Of a DNA stretch of 64,000 nt, positions 54,916 to 63,541 are shown piece by piece. The stretch's first letter is position 1; each line of letters starts with the position of its first letter. The stretch comes from a virus (Duplodnaviria; Caudoviricetes): positions 1-64,000 of IMG/VR virus record IMGVR_UViG_3300005440_000008. One strand, given 5' to 3'. The notes under the pieces were generated by a model that saw nothing but the letters and a program-made list of their open reading frames with translations, ran no database searches and was not told the origin of the DNA. Both the position numbers and the translations under genes were made by a program.

Positions 54916-55815
54916 TCATGGCCTCCGGTCGCCCGGCCACCGGCGTCCCGTCACCCGGAACCAGGTGGTGCCCATGACGCTTCGCCACGCTCGGCCGCGG
55001 ATCCACTCGACGACGGGCGCCGGCAGAAGGGCGCCGGCTAGCTCGAGGCCGAGGGCGCCTGCGGAGCCGATCGTGCCGGCGAACCGGAGGAGCGCCACCC
55101 GGAGGAGCGTCCCCGCGGGCACCACTGTGCCGCTGAGCGCCTTGTGAACGACGCGCACGAGCGTCCCGGTCAGCACGATGGTCCCGGCCGCATTCACGAC
55201 CCGCGTGGTCAAGGTCGTGAGCGCGCCCGCGAGGCTGACGGTGCCGGCCGGCCGGAGCTGGGGCACCTTGGCCACGCTGCCGCTCGAGGCGACCGTGCCG
55301 GCCATGGACCGGTTCACCTGGTTCGCGTCGCTGCCCGCCACGCCGACCGTGCCCCCGAGCCCCTTGTTCGCCTGCTTCACGAGCGTGCCCGTGGGCGCGA
55401 TCGTGCCGCCGAAGAGCGTCGTGAGGAGGGTGCGGAGGCTGCCCGCGATCGCCACGCTGCCGCCGTGGAGGAGCTGCGGAACCCGCGTGAGGGCACCGGC
55501 CACCGGGACCGTGCCGGCGAGCGACGTGTTGACCTGGCTCGACTCGGAGCCGCTCGAGGCGACCGTGCCGCTGAGGCCCTTGTTCACCTGTCGAATCAGC
55601 GCGCCACTCGGGGCGACGCTGCCGGCCTGGCTCAGGTTGGGACGACGGATCAGGGCGCCGGCGATCGCCACCACGCCGGCGTAGGTCGTCTGGGCCTGCT
55701 TGGTCAGGATGCCGGCCACCGTGATCGTGCCGCCGACGTCGAGCGTATAGACGGTCGCCCCGCCCAGCGCGGCGCCGGGGATGCCCATGACCGTCAGCCT
55801 GGTGATGTCCGCCAT
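54916..55815 (-). CDS. Virion protein with ~18-aa beta repeats
   Basis: Recurrent L.GTV..SG.L.(R/K); 22-bp direct repeats at 55279 and 55549. Confidence 0.75.
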   Translation of the reverse strand: MADITRLTVMGIPGAALGGATVYTLDVGGTITVAGILTKQAQTTYAGVVAIAGALIRRPNLSQAGSVAPSGALIRQVNKGLSGTVASSGSESSQVNTSLAGTVPVAGALTRVPQLLHGGSVAIAGSLRTLLTTLFGGTIAPTGTLVKQANKGLGGTVGVAGSDANQVNRSMAGTVASSGSVAKVPQLRPAGTVSLAGALTTLTTRVVNAAGTIVLTGTLVRVVHKALSGTVVPAGTLLRVALLRFAGTIGSAGALGLELAGALLPAPVVEWIRGRAWRSVMGTTWFRVTGRRWPGDRRP

Positions 55816-55818
55816 GCG

Positions 55819-56424
55819 CTACACGATCACGAAGGTGTCCCCGTTCGACGGGGACTCGCCGGTCGGGGTCGCCGAGTAGGTGAGCCGCTTGCTGGACCCG
55901 AGATAGGCCGTGATCGACTGGGCGGAGTCCTTCAGGACCCCGGACGTCCAGAGGATCGCGCGTCCCTTGTAGTGGTCGTCGGTCGCCTCGGTCAGGTTCG
56001 TCGTCGCCTGGGTCGAGGAGAGTGTGCCGGTCACGGCCGCGCCCTCCACGACGGTCCGGGCCGCGTTGGCGGGGACGCGGTTCTCGATCGAGAACTCCGC
56101 GACGACTTCGGCGACCGTCACGCCGTCCACCGTTTCATCCGGGTAGAGCACGACCTGGTAGTCGTGCCCGCTCGCGTAGAACCCGGCATCGGTGTTGTCC
56201 GCCAGGTCTATGGTCACGTGCGTGATGCCCGTCATCGAATCGAAGGGCCCGGTGATCGTGAAGCCAGCCGTCGAAGACCGTTCGGTCGTGCCGTTGTCTT
56301 TGTAGACGCGCAGGTCAGCGGCTTCCCACGCAGACGATTGATCGACGCGCCCGCCACCGAGCTTCCGCGTCGCGAACTTGAAATTGACCGCCGCGCCGAC
56401 CCTGAAGTCTCCGCGATAGCTCAT
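55819..56424 (-). CDS. Putative virion structural protein
   Basis: TDDHYKGRAI.WTSG...GDTFVIV C-terminus. Confidence 0.75.
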   Translation of the reverse strand: MSYRGDFRVGAAVNFKFATRKLGGGRVDQSSAWEAADLRVYKDNGTTERSSTAGFTITGPFDSMTGITHVTIDLADNTDAGFYASGHDYQVVLYPDETVDGVTVAEVVAEFSIENRVPANAARTVVEGAAVTGTLSSTQATTNLTEATDDHYKGRAILWTSGVLKDSAQSITAYLGSSKRLTYSATPTGESPSNGDTFVIV

Positions 56425-58544
56425 CCGACGAGGACCCCCCCGCCGACGAGGCGCGTGGCGTCAGGCCGCGCCCACGTATAGTCACCCCCAGAGATCAACC
56501 GTTGCCGACCGCTCGGGCTGATCGCCAGGTCCACCGGGTCCGCCCACAGCTCGGTGACGCTCGGAATGGCGACCGCGATGCGGACGCGGACGGGGCCGGG
56601 CTCTTGCGGCGTGAAGGTCACGCTGATCGTCTGGGGCGTCCCGGCGGTGTTGCCCGCTAGCTCCCAGGTGGCGGACGACGATGGCCAGTTGGCGGCCGTC
56701 CCTAGAAAACCGACGCGGCTGGTCGCCATCGCGGCGTTCGTCTGGCCAGCCGTGTTCTTGTACACAGCTTCCAACCAGATGTCGCTGTTTTTGAGCAACG
56801 TCGCGCTGTCGATGTAGACTTCTACGTTGACCGTGACGGGGCTCCCGACCTGATCTTGCTGGAAGACCATCCACGGGCAGTAGAGCGGCGTGGTCAAGCT
56901 GACACCCGCGCCGGACTGGATCAGCCACGAGGTCGGCGTCGTTCCGTCCGCCGACGCGCCCCCGGTTCGGTAGACGTTGGGGTCGAGGTCGCTGACGGTT
57001 CCTTCGTAGGAACGGCGGTACATGTTGTTCGCGCCGCCCAACCCCTGACAGTTGTCGAACCAGGCGACCACGCCGCCCGGGCCGCTCCCGCCGCCGAACA
57101 GCGTGACCGCCCCGTTGACGAGGCAGTCTTCAAACTTGAACTCTCCCAAACCTGCCGCGTTCTGGAGGATGAATTTCCCTGACCCCCAGAGCGAAAGGTC
57201 CACCGCCCGGAAGAACGCGATGGTGGGGTTCGCGGCGGTGGCCTTCATCGCGCCGCCTGGCGTCGTGCTCGTGATGAAACTACCGCCCTCCATGATGAGG
57301 CGCAGCTGGCCGAGCGTGAGCGAGGCGTTCGCGTGACCCGGCAACCGTATCGTCGTGTCCTTGAGGAACAACTGGCAATCGTCCGAGGATGTGCCCGTGG
57401 GACCGAAGGCGATCACCGCGCCCGATCCTGTAGCCGGATTGCGGAGCGAACAGTTGTCGAAGTAGAGCGCCCAAGGCGTGGTCGCGGTGAGCGTCATCGC
57501 GTTTGAGCCCGACCCCGTGCTCGACGAGAAGATGATGCCGTAGAAGTAGCAGGACCCAGACGTCCAGGTGATGCTGAACGCGCCCGTCGTCGTGACCGTC
57601 GCCGTGATCGCAAGGACGGTCGGCGTCGCGGGATCGCCGGTGTCGTCCACGCAGATCACGCGGGTCAGGTTCCCCACCGTGCCGCTAGGAGCGAGGGCCA
57701 TTCCGGACGCCTGCGTCTCGGCGTGGTTGTCCGAAACGTAAATCGTATCGCCCGCTGATTCGTCCGCGAACGCGCCGACCAGCGTGGCGTTCGCCAACGC
57801 CCAGGTGGTCCCGTTGTCCGCGTCGCTCCCGTCCCCGCTGCGGAGATACTGGACCGCGCCCATCAGCGGGACCGCGTCGGCGAGTGAGCTGAGCGCCATC
57901 TGGCCGAGCAGCGAGAGCGCGGCGAGCCCGGCGACGCGACGAAGCTGCGCCTGCCTGCGCGCCGCGAAGCGGGCGCGAGCGTGCCCCGCGCTAAGGTAGT
58001 GGACCCCCGCAGGGGTTTTGCGAACGGCGGGGCTGACATAGGGAATGCCGAGCTTCATGCAGAGTTGCTGAGTCCGCTGCGCCCGCTCGATGAACGCGAA
58101 GCCTTCCGCGAGCGCCCAGGTGAGCGCCTGGAGCCGATCCCCGCCGCACGCCTGGTTCGCGACGGCCTGGAGCCGGTCGGGGACTTCCGGGAGGACGGTC
58201 AGCGACGCGCTGGAGTTCTGCCAGTACCACTGCGCGCCCTGGAGCTTCATCGGTGGGGCCGCTTCTCCGCGCGCCGCCTTGCCTTCGACTTCGCAGAGCC
58301 CTTCCGAGAGCGCCCATGCCCAAATGTTCGTCCGCTTGACGTTGGGCCGCTTGTGCCGCGCTTCCCCCTGCGCCCGCCACGCGACTTCTCCGGCGACGGC
58401 TCCCGCGAGGCGCTCGCTCAGTCGCTCGATCCGCGCGAGCGCGGGTCCGATGACGAGATGATGACCGAGCGTGGTTAGTTCCCACTTGATCTTGTGACGC
58501 TTGCGCCAATCCACGCGGTCGGAGTCGAGGCAGGACAGGTTCAC
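56421..58544 (-). CDS. Large beta-rich virion protein with an unrelated-looking N-terminal extension
   Basis: From MGAVQY (57863): GSDADNGTTWALA..AGDTIYV, beta-helix-like; the first ~227 aa are basic and helical. Confidence 0.65.
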   Translation of the reverse strand: MNLSCLDSDRVDWRKRHKIKWELTTLGHHLVIGPALARIERLSERLAGAVAGEVAWRAQGEARHKRPNVKRTNIWAWALSEGLCEVEGKAARGEAAPPMKLQGAQWYWQNSSASLTVLPEVPDRLQAVANQACGGDRLQALTWALAEGFAFIERAQRTQQLCMKLGIPYVSPAVRKTPAGVHYLSAGHARARFAARRQAQLRRVAGLAALSLLGQMALSSLADAVPLMGAVQYLRSGDGSDADNGTTWALANATLVGAFADESAGDTIYVSDNHAETQASGMALAPSGTVGNLTRVICVDDTGDPATPTVLAITATVTTTGAFSITWTSGSCYFYGIIFSSSTGSGSNAMTLTATTPWALYFDNCSLRNPATGSGAVIAFGPTGTSSDDCQLFLKDTTIRLPGHANASLTLGQLRLIMEGGSFITSTTPGGAMKATAANPTIAFFRAVDLSLWGSGKFILQNAAGLGEFKFEDCLVNGAVTLFGGGSGPGGVVAWFDNCQGLGGANNMYRRSYEGTVSDLDPNVYRTGGASADGTTPTSWLIQSGAGVSLTTPLYCPWMVFQQDQVGSPVTVNVEVYIDSATLLKNSDIWLEAVYKNTAGQTNAAMATSRVGFLGTAANWPSSSATWELAGNTAGTPQTISVTFTPQEPGPVRVRIAVAIPSVTELWADPVDLAISPSGRQRLISGGDYTWARPDATRLVGGGVLVG

Positions 58545-58547
58545 GAC

Positions 58548-59003
58548 CTACTCCCCCACCGCCGCGACCAGCGCGGTCCACTGGGACGCCTTGGCCTGGA
58601 GTCGCGTCCTGAGCGACGTGAGGGCGGCTCCGCTGACGCCGAAGAGCGTCCCGAGTTGGTTGTTGGTCAGCGTGTTCAAGAAGGCTCCGAGCGCGCACGC
58701 CTGCTCCCGTGTCGCCGTCCGGTACGCCTCGCGCAGCGCATCGCGGACCTCCGCGATGGTCACGTGATTGGTGGTGACGACGGCCTGGTCTCCTGCCGCG
58801 TAGATGGATCGAAGGTCCTCGGCCAGCTCCTCGCGGGCGAGCCAGCCGATGACAATGGTGATCCGGGCGGCCAAGTTCGCGTCCGAGGCCAACGCCTCGA
58901 TGTCCCGCTGCTGACCCAGGTGGTCGGTGTGCCGCTCGCGGTTGACGACCACGCCATTGGCGAGCCGCCGCGTTGACACCACCACCGAGGATACGATGGG
59001 CAT
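58548..59003 (-). CDS. Hypothetical protein
   Basis: MPIVSSVVVS..., natural composition. Confidence 0.65.
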   Translation of the reverse strand: MPIVSSVVVSTRRLANGVVVNRERHTDHLGQQRDIEALASDANLAARITIVIGWLAREELAEDLRSIYAAGDQAVVTTNHVTIAEVRDALREAYRTATREQACALGAFLNTLTNNQLGTLFGVSGAALTSLRTRLQAKASQWTALVAAVGE

Positions 59004-59005
59004 GC

Positions 59006-60214
59006 TTACGCGTCCTGGAGCACCGTCTCGACTGAGTCCCAGGACGGGATGCCCGGCGGGGTCACGTCCGCCGACGAGCGCAGGGGACGGTAGGCGAACA
59101 CGGCCCCCTGGACCCGATGCACGACGATCAGGAGGTCGTCCTGGATCGAGTAGCCGCCGCGGTTGTAGGTGCCGTTCCACCCCACTCCGGCAACCTCTGG
59201 CGAGTCCGGCGTCACGCCCTCCGTCGGCGCGATGTCGGTGATGGCGAACGTGTCGGGGTTCATTGAGTAGAGCGTGCGGCCTCCGGAGGGGTGGATCCAG
59301 TACACCCCGCTTATCGGATCGCGGACCACGAGGGGCGCGTTCCCGAGCGAATATTGCGCGTTGTACGGCGCGGCGAGCGCCTGCACGCGCCGCTGGTACT
59401 TCCCGCTCGGGAGCGCGTCCCAGACGATGCAGTTGACCGAGGCCGAGAACGGGCCGAAGCCGACGACGCGATCCCGGACAGGATCGTGGAGCAGGCTCAT
59501 GTAGATGTACTGGTTGCTGTTCTCCTGCCCGTCGTCGATGATCTTGGCCTTCTGACCGGGCGGCAGGCGGTGGTCGTAGCTCCGCAGCCGCCCGTTGCTG
59601 CAATAGATGACGCGATCGTGGAGCGTGTCGAGGCAGGCCGAGCATGCCGTGTGCGGAGTGGTCCCGCCCGGCCAACCCAGCATGAAGCTGTCGCCCGCCG
59701 CGCAAATGCCGGTGACCGCGTCGGTCTCCCACGAGAGCGCGCCGCAGCCCGAGCCGTCGTACCAACGCACCCCGCCGAACTGGATGATCTTGCCGGCGTG
59801 GTACACCTGGCCCTGGTAGTTGTGCCGGCTCGCGTAGATCAGGTTCCCCGGCGGCCCGTAGAGCCCGGTCGGGTCCGAGTAGTACGGCAAGCTCGGCTGG
59901 GTCGGGTTGTAGCGCGACGGGATCAGGTCCACCGACGGGCCGCGCAGCATCCGCCAGAGCCCGTCGGCGAGCGTGAACGAGTCGGACTCGTTACTGGCGC
60001 TGCTCCCGTGGCCACCGCAGGCCGCAAGGTAGAGCTTCCCCGCGACCGGGTCCATCGCGCCGCCGCACCAGTCGAAGACCTTCTCCGCCTGGTTGACCCC
60101 CTTGACGGCGGTGATCGTCTTGCCGGTGCCGGGCTGTCGCCAAAGGGTCGCGCCGACGCTTTGGCCCGGCTGCGAGACAACGCCCCACTGGCCTGCGGTG
60201 ACCGGAAGGGTCAT
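59006..60214 (-). CDS. Kelch/beta-propeller-like protein
   Basis: WCGGAMDP..LYLAACGGH, SRHNY, QFGG, repeated xDP..D blades. Confidence 0.75.
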   Translation of the reverse strand: MTLPVTAGQWGVVSQPGQSVGATLWRQPGTGKTITAVKGVNQAEKVFDWCGGAMDPVAGKLYLAACGGHGSSASNESDSFTLADGLWRMLRGPSVDLIPSRYNPTQPSLPYYSDPTGLYGPPGNLIYASRHNYQGQVYHAGKIIQFGGVRWYDGSGCGALSWETDAVTGICAAGDSFMLGWPGGTTPHTACSACLDTLHDRVIYCSNGRLRSYDHRLPPGQKAKIIDDGQENSNQYIYMSLLHDPVRDRVVGFGPFSASVNCIVWDALPSGKYQRRVQALAAPYNAQYSLGNAPLVVRDPISGVYWIHPSGGRTLYSMNPDTFAITDIAPTEGVTPDSPEVAGVGWNGTYNRGGYSIQDDLLIVVHRVQGAVFAYRPLRSSADVTPPGIPSWDSVETVLQDA

Positions 60215-60216
60215 CG

Positions 60217-60540
60217 CTAGTTGTCCTGGAAGACCCCGACGATGGAATCCCACTGCGGCATATCCGGCGGGATCAGGTCCACCGACGGGACGGTGACATC
60301 GCGCTCGGCCGGGAGACTCGCGTTGCCGGCCGCGTCGACCGCGACCAGCCCGAGCCGGACCACGTAGGCGGCCTCGGTCGTCGGGAGCGGATCGTAGGTG
60401 AAGCTCGCCTTGCCGTCCGCACCCTTGGGCCGCTCGCCCTTGAGGTCGCCGTCGAGGAGAAAACGGAAGAGGGCCGTGTCGGTGTCGGCCGCGCCGAGCG
60501 CCGCGAGAGCGTTAGCGGTAATGACAAAGACCTTGGCCAT
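60217..60540 (-). CDS. Single FN3/Ig-like domain protein
   Basis: FRFLLDG, SFTYDPL, LVAVDAAGNAS. Confidence 0.8.
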   Translation of the reverse strand: MAKVFVITANALAALGAADTDTALFRFLLDGDLKGERPKGADGKASFTYDPLPTTEAAYVVRLGLVAVDAAGNASLPAERDVTVPSVDLIPPDMPQWDSIVGVFQDN

Positions 60541-60543
60541 TGA

Positions 60544-62922
60544 TTAGCCCTCCAGGTGGGCCTCCACCAACTCCCAGGTCGGAGCCAACGGAGGCGTGGT
60601 GTCGGCCGGTGGTGTGGTGGTCAGCGGGACGACGCGCGTATTCCAGCGGATGTAATAGATGATCGCGGCGCACTCGGCATCGGTGAGATTGCGCGGGTAG
60701 CCGCTGCCCGCGCCCGCGCGAAGGAAGGCCGCGAGATCGCCGTCACGCAACTCGGCCAGGTCATCGAAGTTGGGGAGACCGAGGTGTCCCTGCCCGTCCT
60801 CGCCGTGGGTCAAGGCAAAGGCCGGGTACGGGTCGGCGGCTCGCCCTTGCCACAGACCCTTCCCGGTCTGATACAGGCTCTTGTTCACGGCCGGATCTGT
60901 CGGGAGCCGGCGCGTCTGCACCCAGAGCCCCTGCATCGTGCCGGTGCCGACGATATACACGCGGCCCATCCCTGACGCGACCATCGTCGGGTAGTGGCAG
61001 CTCGTGAGGTTCCGGTTACTCCCTTCGACCAGGAATCGGTCTAGGCTGCTGGTGTTCGGGAAGAAGCTCCCGAGCCAGGCCGTCATGTCCTTTGAGTAGA
61101 TCCGCGCCGAGTCCTGTGTCCACTGGGTGGTGCGGATGCAGTCTTTCGGCCCGCACGTGCCGTCCCAGTTGATGTCGATGCAGATGTCCCGCGTGTTGAA
61201 GCCGGTGGCGAACGTCGGGAGCTTGCCGAGGAAGCGGCCGGTCTGGGTGCGGAAATCCCACTTGAACAGGCCGTCCAGGTAGCGGCAGGAAAAGATCAGG
61301 TTGCCCTCGGAGTCAAAGCGGACGCTCTGGGGGAAGGCGAAGCCGAACGTGCCCCGGCCGCCGTCGCGCCGGAACCGGGTGAGCAGGGCGTCCTGGGAGA
61401 AGGACGACCGGCCCATGCCGCGCCCGTTCACCCGGACATCGGGATGTTCGAGGGTGATCGAGGCGTCGGCCGTCGCGGACTGAATCCGGTCCATCACCAC
61501 GCCCGTCTTCGCGTCGATCAGCAGGATCGCGTGGTGCATGAAGAGCGGGAGCCACATCTCGTCGGTGTTCCAGATGCGGCAGGGATCCCAGGGCTCCGAC
61601 CCGTGGTCGAGCGGCGTGAACATCGTGATCTCGGGCGGGCGCCCCGGGGCCTCGTGGCACGGCCGGTGGTTCGCCTTCTGGATGCAGTAGCCGAGGGTGT
61701 TGCTGATGAGGTGTTCCTCGTGATGCACGTCGGCGGCCGGCGTCGGGTAGGGGCCGAACGGGACCGCACCCCACGGCTCGATCAGCTTCGGCCGGAAGTC
61801 CCCCACGGTCTGCATCTGGCCCTCGCGCACAGGCCCCCAGGTGTCCGGCCCCGGGAAGTAGCCGGTCGTCCGCGACGAGGTGGGATGCGCGGTGAAATCA
61901 TCCTCGGCCCGCAGGCGACGACCGGCGACCGTCGAGAGCCGCCCATCGAAGCGGTGGGCGAACGCGAGGCGCCCGTTCGTGCAGGTGATGAAACAACCGC
62001 CCGCCCTGGCCGGGTTCTCGTGCCGCGCGACCCAGCCCGACCAGCCGTGCCCGAGTTGGCCGCTTCCGCGAGGGCCGTCCACGAGCGGCACCCCGTCGAG
62101 CGGGCTCAGGACTGACGGGTCGGGCGGGATGACGTTGCTGTGCACCCCCTGGAAGTAGTCGTACTGCTCCTTCCCGGTGATGACGATGCGCGGGGTGCCC
62201 GGGCGCTTCTTGCTCTCGATGACGCCGATCCGGCGCGCCATCGCCTTGGTGGACACGCTGCCAAGGCGGGTGTAGTGGAAGAAGTCCTTGGCCGCCTCCG
62301 TCGTGTAGAACGGAATCGTCGTGTACGGCTGCGCGGTGGGGCGCAGCTCGTCCGGTCCGGGGCGGAACGGCACCACCACCCGGCGGTTGATGGGCTCGCC
62401 CGGGTGCCAGATCATCGCCGGCATCTGGCCATTGACGACGTACCAGATCCCGTCCCACTTCGTCGGTCCGGCCCAGCACCAGCCCGCCTGGGTGAGCGGC
62501 AACGGCTCGCCCGTCGTGAACTTGCAGGTCGCCGCCCAGAAGTTGTCGGTCAGAGGGCCGCCCGTGAAGCGGGCCCAGAGGACGTGCTGAAGGGTCGGGC
62601 CCGTGCGCGGGAGTACCTGGCGATCAGTCACGCACCAGCGGTCAGCGGTGCGGGGGGTCATCTGGGCCACGGCGAGGGCGTCGAGGTCGATCTGGAAGCG
62701 GTAGGGCGGCGCCAGGATCGGCGAGCCGAGCGGCTGGTCGTCGAGGAAGAACTGGACGGTCGGCCAGGGGCTCATCGTGACGGCCGCCCCGCTCTCGGTC
62801 AACCACTGGAACTCGAACGAGAACAAGCCCGACAGGTCGTGGACGTGCTCCCCCCGGTAGTAGCGGGAGCCGAGCGTATTGTCGCCCTCGGCGGGAGTCT
62901 TGACGACGAGGTAGTGACGCAT
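60544..62922 (-). CDS. Large Ig plus NHL/beta-propeller-like protein
   Basis: VQFFLDDQPLG..PPYRF, LIEPWG, FAFPQSVRFDSEGNL. Confidence 0.7.
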   Translation of the reverse strand: MRHYLVVKTPAEGDNTLGSRYYRGEHVHDLSGLFSFEFQWLTESGAAVTMSPWPTVQFFLDDQPLGSPILAPPYRFQIDLDALAVAQMTPRTADRWCVTDRQVLPRTGPTLQHVLWARFTGGPLTDNFWAATCKFTTGEPLPLTQAGWCWAGPTKWDGIWYVVNGQMPAMIWHPGEPINRRVVVPFRPGPDELRPTAQPYTTIPFYTTEAAKDFFHYTRLGSVSTKAMARRIGVIESKKRPGTPRIVITGKEQYDYFQGVHSNVIPPDPSVLSPLDGVPLVDGPRGSGQLGHGWSGWVARHENPARAGGCFITCTNGRLAFAHRFDGRLSTVAGRRLRAEDDFTAHPTSSRTTGYFPGPDTWGPVREGQMQTVGDFRPKLIEPWGAVPFGPYPTPAADVHHEEHLISNTLGYCIQKANHRPCHEAPGRPPEITMFTPLDHGSEPWDPCRIWNTDEMWLPLFMHHAILLIDAKTGVVMDRIQSATADASITLEHPDVRVNGRGMGRSSFSQDALLTRFRRDGGRGTFGFAFPQSVRFDSEGNLIFSCRYLDGLFKWDFRTQTGRFLGKLPTFATGFNTRDICIDINWDGTCGPKDCIRTTQWTQDSARIYSKDMTAWLGSFFPNTSSLDRFLVEGSNRNLTSCHYPTMVASGMGRVYIVGTGTMQGLWVQTRRLPTDPAVNKSLYQTGKGLWQGRAADPYPAFALTHGEDGQGHLGLPNFDDLAELRDGDLAAFLRAGAGSGYPRNLTDAECAAIIYYIRWNTRVVPLTTTPPADTTPPLAPTWELVEAHLEG

Positions 62923-62968: not shown

Positions 62969-63541
62969 TCATCCGAGTCGCTCCTGGTTCCCGAGCCGCA
63001 CATAGCGCTCGGGCCCGCTCGTCCAGTGGGGCTCCCCCTGGGTGCGGACGGTCTCGTACATCTGGAAGCGCCGCCACCGCTCGAGGTTCTTGAGGATCAT
63101 CAGCTCGAGGAACACGAGGTCCGCGGTCGCCTGGTCCGCGCACAGGTGGGTCTGGTAGAGGAGATCGTGCCCCGCCCCTTCCTTGTTGCAGATCCCGCCG
63201 AAGCACAGGTAGACGAGCGGCAGCCGGGGTGTCGAGGCGAGATCCGTCACGAAGCCGATGGGGAAATTGACGCGCGCCCGCAGGACCGCGCTATCGAAGG
63301 CGAGCTCGCCCATGATCTCCCACGTTTTGTCCGGAACCACCTCGCCCACCACGAAGCGGCCATGCCACGCCGGCTCGATCGCGGTCTCGCGCAGGTTGGT
63401 GAACCCGGTCGGCCACTCCGCGAGGGCGCCATACTCGGCCATCATCTTCGCGTCCCGCTCGGCCGGGGTCGTCCAGCCGAAGACGAGGCCGGTGCGCTCA
63501 CCGCGGCGCGCGTCCTGGTAGGTGAAGATCGCCGTCGTCAT
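62969..63541 (-). CDS. DUF1353 domain protein
   Basis: PIGFVTDLASTPR, HDLLYQ, ADLVFLELM. Confidence 0.85.
   Translation of the reverse strand: MTTAIFTYQDARRGERTGLVFGWTTPAERDAKMMAEYGALAEWPTGFTNLRETAIEPAWHGRFVVGEVVPDKTWEIMGELAFDSAVLRARVNFPIGFVTDLASTPRLPLVYLCFGGICNKEGAGHDLLYQTHLCADQATADLVFLELMILKNLERWRRFQMYETVRTQGEPHWTSGPERYVRLGNQERLG

Follow-up and report, generated by a model that had tools for sequence, protein, structure and literature searches.

A three-gene phage cassette with a predicted FN3-type subunit lacking strand A and a strand-A-like tail common to all three proteins

We analyzed the first 64 kb (hereafter, the window) of the 104,033-nucleotide (nt) virus record IMGVR_UViG_3300005440_000008, whose minus-strand late region contains a 3.9-kb cassette (59006..62922) of three adjacent genes, here called A (60544..62922; 792 amino acids), B (60217-60540; 107 amino acids), and C (59006-60214; 402 amino acids). 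Structure prediction indicates that B is an FN3-type domain lacking strand A, with a spare copy of this strand at its tail. Pilus-style exchange of strand A among A, B, and C appears reasonably likely. None of the three proteins matched a Pfam or PHROG family, and none has a visible signal peptide.

The original prediction, made from the DNA sequence, had proposed that three consecutive proteins share one C-terminal motif, and this was borne out by a genome-wide count. Across all six frames of the 104-kb genome, there are exactly three instances of the motif D-x-x-P-P-x-x-P-x-W, namely the C termini of A, B, and C. After shuffling of the residues in the six frames (200 shuffles), the motif was found 0.155 times on average and at most twice, so that three occurrences were never reached. 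Of the 1095 open reading frame (ORF) ends in the genome, those of C and A match the B tail (60217..60279) best, apart from B itself, the C tail (59006..59068) being the closest. The A tail (60544..60603) also resembles strand A of FN3/Big_13 domains, and all three are candidate donor strands. In a second phage, represented by locus L001, the stops of all three genes fall at the same places. We also observed a 28-nt direct repeat (93%) at 59915-59942 and 60265-60292, which encodes PSVDLIP just before the B tail and within C (residues 93-99); it is retained in L001 at lower DNA identity and is possibly a recombination relic.

An AlphaFold2 (AF2) model of the B monomer, built from six sequences, showed six strands with a predicted local distance difference test (pLDDT) value of 72 and a predicted template modeling (pTM) score of 0.69. 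The six-stranded core, tail excluded, reached a pLDDT of 77-90, and residues 94-107 were unstructured (pLDDT below 50) and formed no strand. The model resembles the FN3 or bacterial immunoglobulin (Ig)-like sandwich, with Z scores of 7-8.7 to many FN3 domains and a root mean square deviation (rmsd) of ~2 over 70-80 residues. The alignments with solved FN3 domains begin at about residue 15 of the latter (3pe9, 16-90, Z 8.4, rmsd 2.5 over 75; 3pdg, 15-91; 2h45, 18-95; 3teu, 15-98). A structure search of BFVD returned only weak generic FN3 matches. Together, the AF2 model and the structure alignments indicate that B does not hold all seven strands A-G in one chain and that the strand absent at its N terminus is A, in agreement with the earlier proposal that B begins at strand B and carries a strand-A-like motif at its C terminus. 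The core (residues 1-85; 60286..60540) would thus comprise strands B, C, C', E, F, and G around an empty strand-A slot.

Profile searches with B retrieved tandem FN3/Ig-repeat proteins, in which the matches begin at strand B, continue past strand G, and take in the D-x-x-P-P of the next repeat. The B tail is therefore located where the strand A of the next repeat sits in tandem arrays, and the tails of the window resemble the Big_13-type strand-A start found in these matches. In five B proteins, the distance from the F-G turn to the Asp of the tail is 9-12 residues, as compared to 7-16 in tandem arrays, where the compared strand is part of the next domain. The segment preceding the F-G turn has 60-71 residues in B versus a median of 80 in full repeats, which makes B 10-20 residues shorter. 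Because the termini of an FN3 domain sit at opposite ends and the spacer of B is like that of tandem arrays, B has no linker that would allow its tail to fold back. Such fold-back, which would have spoken against the original prediction, was also not seen in the AF2 monomer. Thus, the model and the spacer length predict an incomplete fold with a terminal donor strand that is unable to complete its own chain.

Subsequently, we compared the cassette with its relatives. We found seven homologues of A in six other phage lineages, with identities of 28-94%. In L001 (JGI, 28.5 kb), A, B, and C are 94, 82, and 84% identical to those of the window, and more distant homologues of A are encoded in L002 (28%), L003, L004, L005/L006, and L009/L010. 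Every tail-bearing A homologue is directly followed by a gene for 94-110 amino acids, which is cut by the contig end in L004. In L002, L005, and L009, this small gene encodes a B-like protein that begins with strand B. A is the constant partner of B; the only homologue of C was found in L001, so that C is present in two of the seven lineages. Obligatory read-through from A into B was ruled out, as L004 and L005 have A and B in different reading frames, and in all seven loci B is provided with its own Shine-Dalgarno (SD) sequence (−9.8 kcal/mol in the window).

The original prediction could be checked by the co-occurrence of the motif in neighboring genes of related phages. Matching tails were indeed found, and their sequence varies between loci but matches within each locus (P-x-W-D/E in the window, LRVAK in L003, FSW-ending in L005, and APTL in L009). 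In a score matrix of A tails against B tails from five independent loci, the true pairing ranked first among the 120 permutations for each tail length used (20, 24, and 28; P about 0.008, phylogeny ignored). The bodies of A from L002 and L003 are 76% identical, but their tails are unlike, and each matches its own B. Similarly, the closest relative of the L004 A protein is that of L005 (82% identity), yet the L004 tail is of the L009 type, and the start of B in L004 resembles that of B in L009. Tail type does not, therefore, track the ancestry of A. Furthermore, B proteins starting with Met-Trp (Trp2) are found with Trp-ending tails in four of four loci, and those without Trp2 with tails lacking this terminal Trp in three of three. 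Such pairing would be expected if the two sides of the cut A-B turn were in contact but is suggestive only, because in some loci the SD of B and the final codons of A overlap. Among the identical residues of paired tails, only one of seven has its codon in common in L002 and two of eight in L009; in these loci, the likeness of the tails is kept at the protein level.

Next, we examined the bodies of A and C, both of which had been proposed to be propellers. The Atlas model of C (pTM 0.80) matched phage and Kelch propellers over residues 1-380 with template modeling (TM) scores of 0.69-0.75, all based on predicted models. The propeller feature score was 0.94-0.95, and the tail falls outside the propeller. 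The body of C (residues 1-380; 59075..60214) is thus predicted to be a Kelch-like beta-propeller, which would serve as an optional second head. A is probably an NHL/SGL-type propeller, although the indications are fainter: an SGL propeller match in two of six A homologues had an E value of 0.001 and did not reach the cut-off, and a low-confidence AF2 model of A read through into B (pLDDT 36) gave NHL/Vgb-lyase propeller matches with E values of 6e-4 to 5e-3. No sequence relatives of A with a solved structure were found. Residues ~32-135 tentatively form an Ig-like beta-sandwich, and the predicted order in A is this N-terminal domain, the probable propeller, a small helical region, a Pro-rich linker, and the donor strand. 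For the start of A, the ORF list extends to an upstream ATG at 63003; we chose 62922, which corresponds to the start of the L001 homologue. The claim of two propeller proteins therefore stands for C, on the predicted models, and less firmly for A.

The first 50 bases of the record are repeated ~90 nt before its end, and it is therefore a circular, probably complete phage genome. In the matching rhizosphere metagenome run, its probable source, a contig of depth 33 was identical over the studied stretch, with 0 differences. The phage of the window is siphovirus-like and has a tape measure gene. The cassette is flanked by head-completion genes on one side and tail genes on the other, and this late-operon context is what suggests a virion role for A, B, and C; the other A-B loci all adjoin lysis-type genes. 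The cassette is also the sole DNA-level match of the 20-kb L001 locus to the genome (3916 nt, 87%, from the start of A to the end of C), and its flanks are unrelated between the two phages. Two other accessory genes are common to both at the protein level and are positioned elsewhere. The L001 phage encodes the virion protein phrog_3287, an acetyltransferase, and large internal-protein-like genes, with no tape measure gene in the fragment, and looks podovirus-like. These comparisons indicate that A-B-C is a mobile module, which has been transferred as a whole between phages whose core virion genes are unrelated.

In the assembly that we propose, the FN3-type domain of B would be opened at the A-B turn, so that its gene specifies strands B-G first and strand A last. 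As the B tail would emerge at the distal end of this domain and has no additional linker, it could not fill its own groove and would complete another copy of B. Successive copies would in this way rebuild a tandem-FN3 rod non-covalently, in the cytoplasm and with neither chaperone nor protease. A, which is always encoded just upstream of B, and optionally C would put their matching strand A into the open groove at one end. The product would be (A or C)-B(n), whose other end would leave a donor strand free, and it could be used as a virion appendage or as a fiber released at lysis, with the propeller heads binding surfaces or glycans. We consider the binding of tails in the B groove in trans to be likely; given such binding, chaining beyond one or two copies of B is slightly favored. 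The broadest form of the proposal, which we advance more tentatively as plausible but short of probable, is a chaperone-free phage equivalent of a pilus, in which a permuted FN3 rod of variable length receives exchangeable propeller caps, the three-gene cassette travels between siphovirus-like and podovirus-like phages, and its divergence has produced several orthogonal tag/groove pairs.

Several observations weigh against this assembly. When the in-frame read-through of A, stop, and B was folded as one chain (AF2, stop as Gln, eight sequences), the mean pLDDT was 36, and in this model, which is too poor to decide the matter, the A tail lay outside the B groove, was partly helical, and had a pLDDT below 50. 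The tails of the window also fit an amphipathic helix with i, i+3, i+7 periodicity. The small gene of L003 contains the F-G motif and has no profile link to the other B proteins. The tail matrix comprises only five loci, which are not phylogenetically independent. In L005 and L003, eight of nine and five of nine tail codons are in common, respectively, so that DNA copying contributes to the likeness; it is probable that copies from B renew the tails, which selection then maintains. In MW202621 (L007:4825-7295), the gene immediately following that of the portal encodes a distant A homologue that is tailless and has a different N terminus, which shows that other means of attaching the head exist; this locus was left out of the A-B pair counts. 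Last, no other acceptor lacking strand A was found by sequence in the complete genome or the other loci, where a distant one could be missed, and the anchor for the chain is thus unexplained.

The polarity of the chain also deserves caution. In type V pili, the tips have no donor strand and the anchors carry it (PMC13655056), and in the Pam pili of the candidate phyla radiation (CPR) the tip is an acceptor (PMC13278184). By analogy, the donor-only A may as well be the base, or the fiber may be released at lysis. The interpretation given in the original prediction is thus supported in part: the missing strand, the lack of fold-back, and the co-variation of the tails speak for it, while the roles it assigned to tips do not follow. 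Interchangeable tips on a virion fiber go beyond the evidence, given the restricted occurrence of C, the lack of an anchor detectable by sequence, and type V tips devoid of a donor strand.

Among the alternatives, the one that survives best, although we judge it unlikely, is that B acts as a single-copy adaptor, which accepts the strand of A or C and hands its own tail to a virion acceptor, forming a short spacer and no polymer. The co-variation data fit this arrangement equally well. It also agrees with the ribosome-binding site of B, which is inconsistent, being stronger than that of A in only four of six loci, and with the one-to-one fold completion in the lactococcal phage Tuc2009, in which a C-terminal extension of ~25 residues completes the beta-sandwich of another protein in the virion (BppU-BppA; PMC4742702). 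However, no acceptor was found in the genome or the loci, the tails are kept between siphovirus-like and podovirus-like phages that have no capsid or tail genes in common, and a tail fitting such a groove should fit B itself.

A less probable explanation is that the tails are a common tag for a third partner, all of them binding a single site on a protein of the capsid, the tail, or the host through beta-augmentation or as an amphipathic helix, with B being a six-stranded monomer. This would account for the co-variation among the tails, and it is consistent with their helical periodicity in the window, with the helical A tail in the poor read-through model, and with the pLDDT that the six-stranded core reaches without the tail. 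It would, however, leave unexplained why B lacks exactly the strand encoded in the tail, the tandem-array register, the pairing of Trp2 with the terminal Trp, and the switch of the tail together with B. Moreover, no third gene is common to all loci, and the cassette has apparently moved intact between unrelated virion types.

Strand swapping is common in Ig/FN3 folds, and B could form closed dimers or rings that bury their tails and that A or C enter by exchange, resulting in a small hub rather than a fiber. Such closed oligomers would need no anchor, but we assign them a slim chance: the zero-length linker favors a linear head-to-tail axis as in tandem arrays, and a closed ring would have no groove for A, yet A lies beside B in all tail-bearing loci. 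Finally, it is very improbable that the genes are the remnant of a fragmented head-plus-tandem-FN3 adhesin gene or are joined by read-through of the A-B stop, in which case trans binding of the tails would not be needed. In its favor, the A-B junction keeps the reading frame in five of the seven loci, the window among them, joining the A tail to B gives a canonical FN3 sequence, and some DNA copying between tails has occurred. Against it, the stop codon and the spacer vary (2-21 nt), the split is retained at 28% identity, and the A matches (411-1386 amino acids only) include no fused form.

Donor-strand assembly is textbook knowledge for pili, and adhesins commonly bear propeller heads on FN3 stalks. 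In the Fim/Pap chaperone-usher pili, the missing strand is G, while in B it is A. The strand exchange that we favor is similar to that of type V pili (FimA and Mfa1 of Porphyromonas; PMC13655056), in which a C-terminal donor strand enters the groove of the next subunit and the joint is common to accessory subunits. Those pili, however, are built of two-domain transthyretin-like pilins with lipoprotein export, a protease trigger, and a self-complementing monomer, whereas the phage system has a single FN3-type domain, no signal peptide, no predicted cis complementation, and large heads as donors. B has no lipoprotein signal, protease-cleaved anchor strand, or pair of transthyretin-like domains; it is a single 107-amino acid domain that starts directly at strand B and has no Cys lipobox. 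Chaperone-usher and CPR Pam pili (PMC13278184) likewise contain an incomplete Ig-like fold completed by a strand of the neighbor. In contrast to the phage cassette, their donor is an N-terminal extension or an inter-domain linker, chaperones are needed, and the tips are acceptors; here, the donor is C-terminal, there is no signal peptide, and the three genes include neither a chaperone nor an usher.

The BppU-BppA pair differs in that a two-strand hairpin docks one-to-one onto a carbohydrate-binding module on the baseplate, and the acceptor has no donor of its own, so that no chain results. Tandem bacterial FN3/Big_13 adhesin repeats and phage structural Ig-like domains resemble B in fold, D-x-x-P-P strand-A start, F-G turn, and spacer, but the tandem repeats are covalent and complete, while here the repeat unit would be a separate gene cut at the A-B turn. 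In the literature searched, the coverage of which was incomplete, we found no report of a phage FN3 subunit that is both an acceptor and a C-terminal donor of strand A, with heads carrying the same donor. As judged from the sequences, the cassette would represent a real new variant of donor-strand assembly with unusually clear evidence from natural swaps, and complementation in trans is likely. If this is true, phages make tandem-FN3 stalks from one 100-residue gene and fix large heads via a 20-residue tag, an instance of the pilus principle in a virus for which the same literature held no report. It would also account for a group of small phage Ig-like genes that lack annotation, provide a sequence rule for partner finding (matching C-terminal tails in neighbors), and give protein engineering a source of natural split-FN3 tag/catcher pairs that are probably orthogonal, with five cognate pairs at hand.

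Further searches for relatives gave little. Scans of viral contigs (for B, C, and in subsets for A) and of GTDB genomes were blank, as were one metagenome scan and the INPHARED scan for C; profile P0018 found only internal Ig repeats in INPHARED. In run X1 from the same sample, low-depth contigs matching parts of A, B, and C at ~85% identity (window 59487-62158) were detected, one of which spans the B-C junction with a different spacer, and these suggest further cassette variants in that sample. Proteins of the L005 type are recorded from a metagenome-assembled genome of Ca. Rokubacteria (HAM54737.1 and HAM54738.1), which is a hint to, and not proof of, the host. Phages of the L005 type recur in metagenomes from groundwater. 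In MW202621, the neighbor of the A homologue is a 131-amino acid protein with a signal peptide and a Pro-rich, strand-A-like peptide at its end. It may be a secreted parallel of B; it has no profile link to B, and no partner tail was found in that genome.

Around the cassette, a DUF1353 gene together with lipoprotein/holin-like genes is found both in the window (62969-63541, minus strand) and in L005 (L005:13906-14331). Directly after C lies a 151-codon gene (58551-59003, minus strand), which is absent from the ORF list owing to an overlapping ORF and whose product has 62% identity to a 156-amino acid protein that the L001 phage encodes in its structural region. The following 707-amino acid ORF (56421-58544, minus strand) may consist of two parts: its upstream part has a hydrophobic, signal-like stretch at its end, and a Met at 57863 begins a 480-amino acid region with 45% identity to a 514-amino acid protein of L012 that has a head-decoration match. 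Last, the gene at 54916-55815 (minus strand), which adjoins a Gp77-like adaptor gene, encodes a 299-amino acid protein of ~18-residue Gly/Thr/Val repeats that is probably a beta-solenoid fiber.

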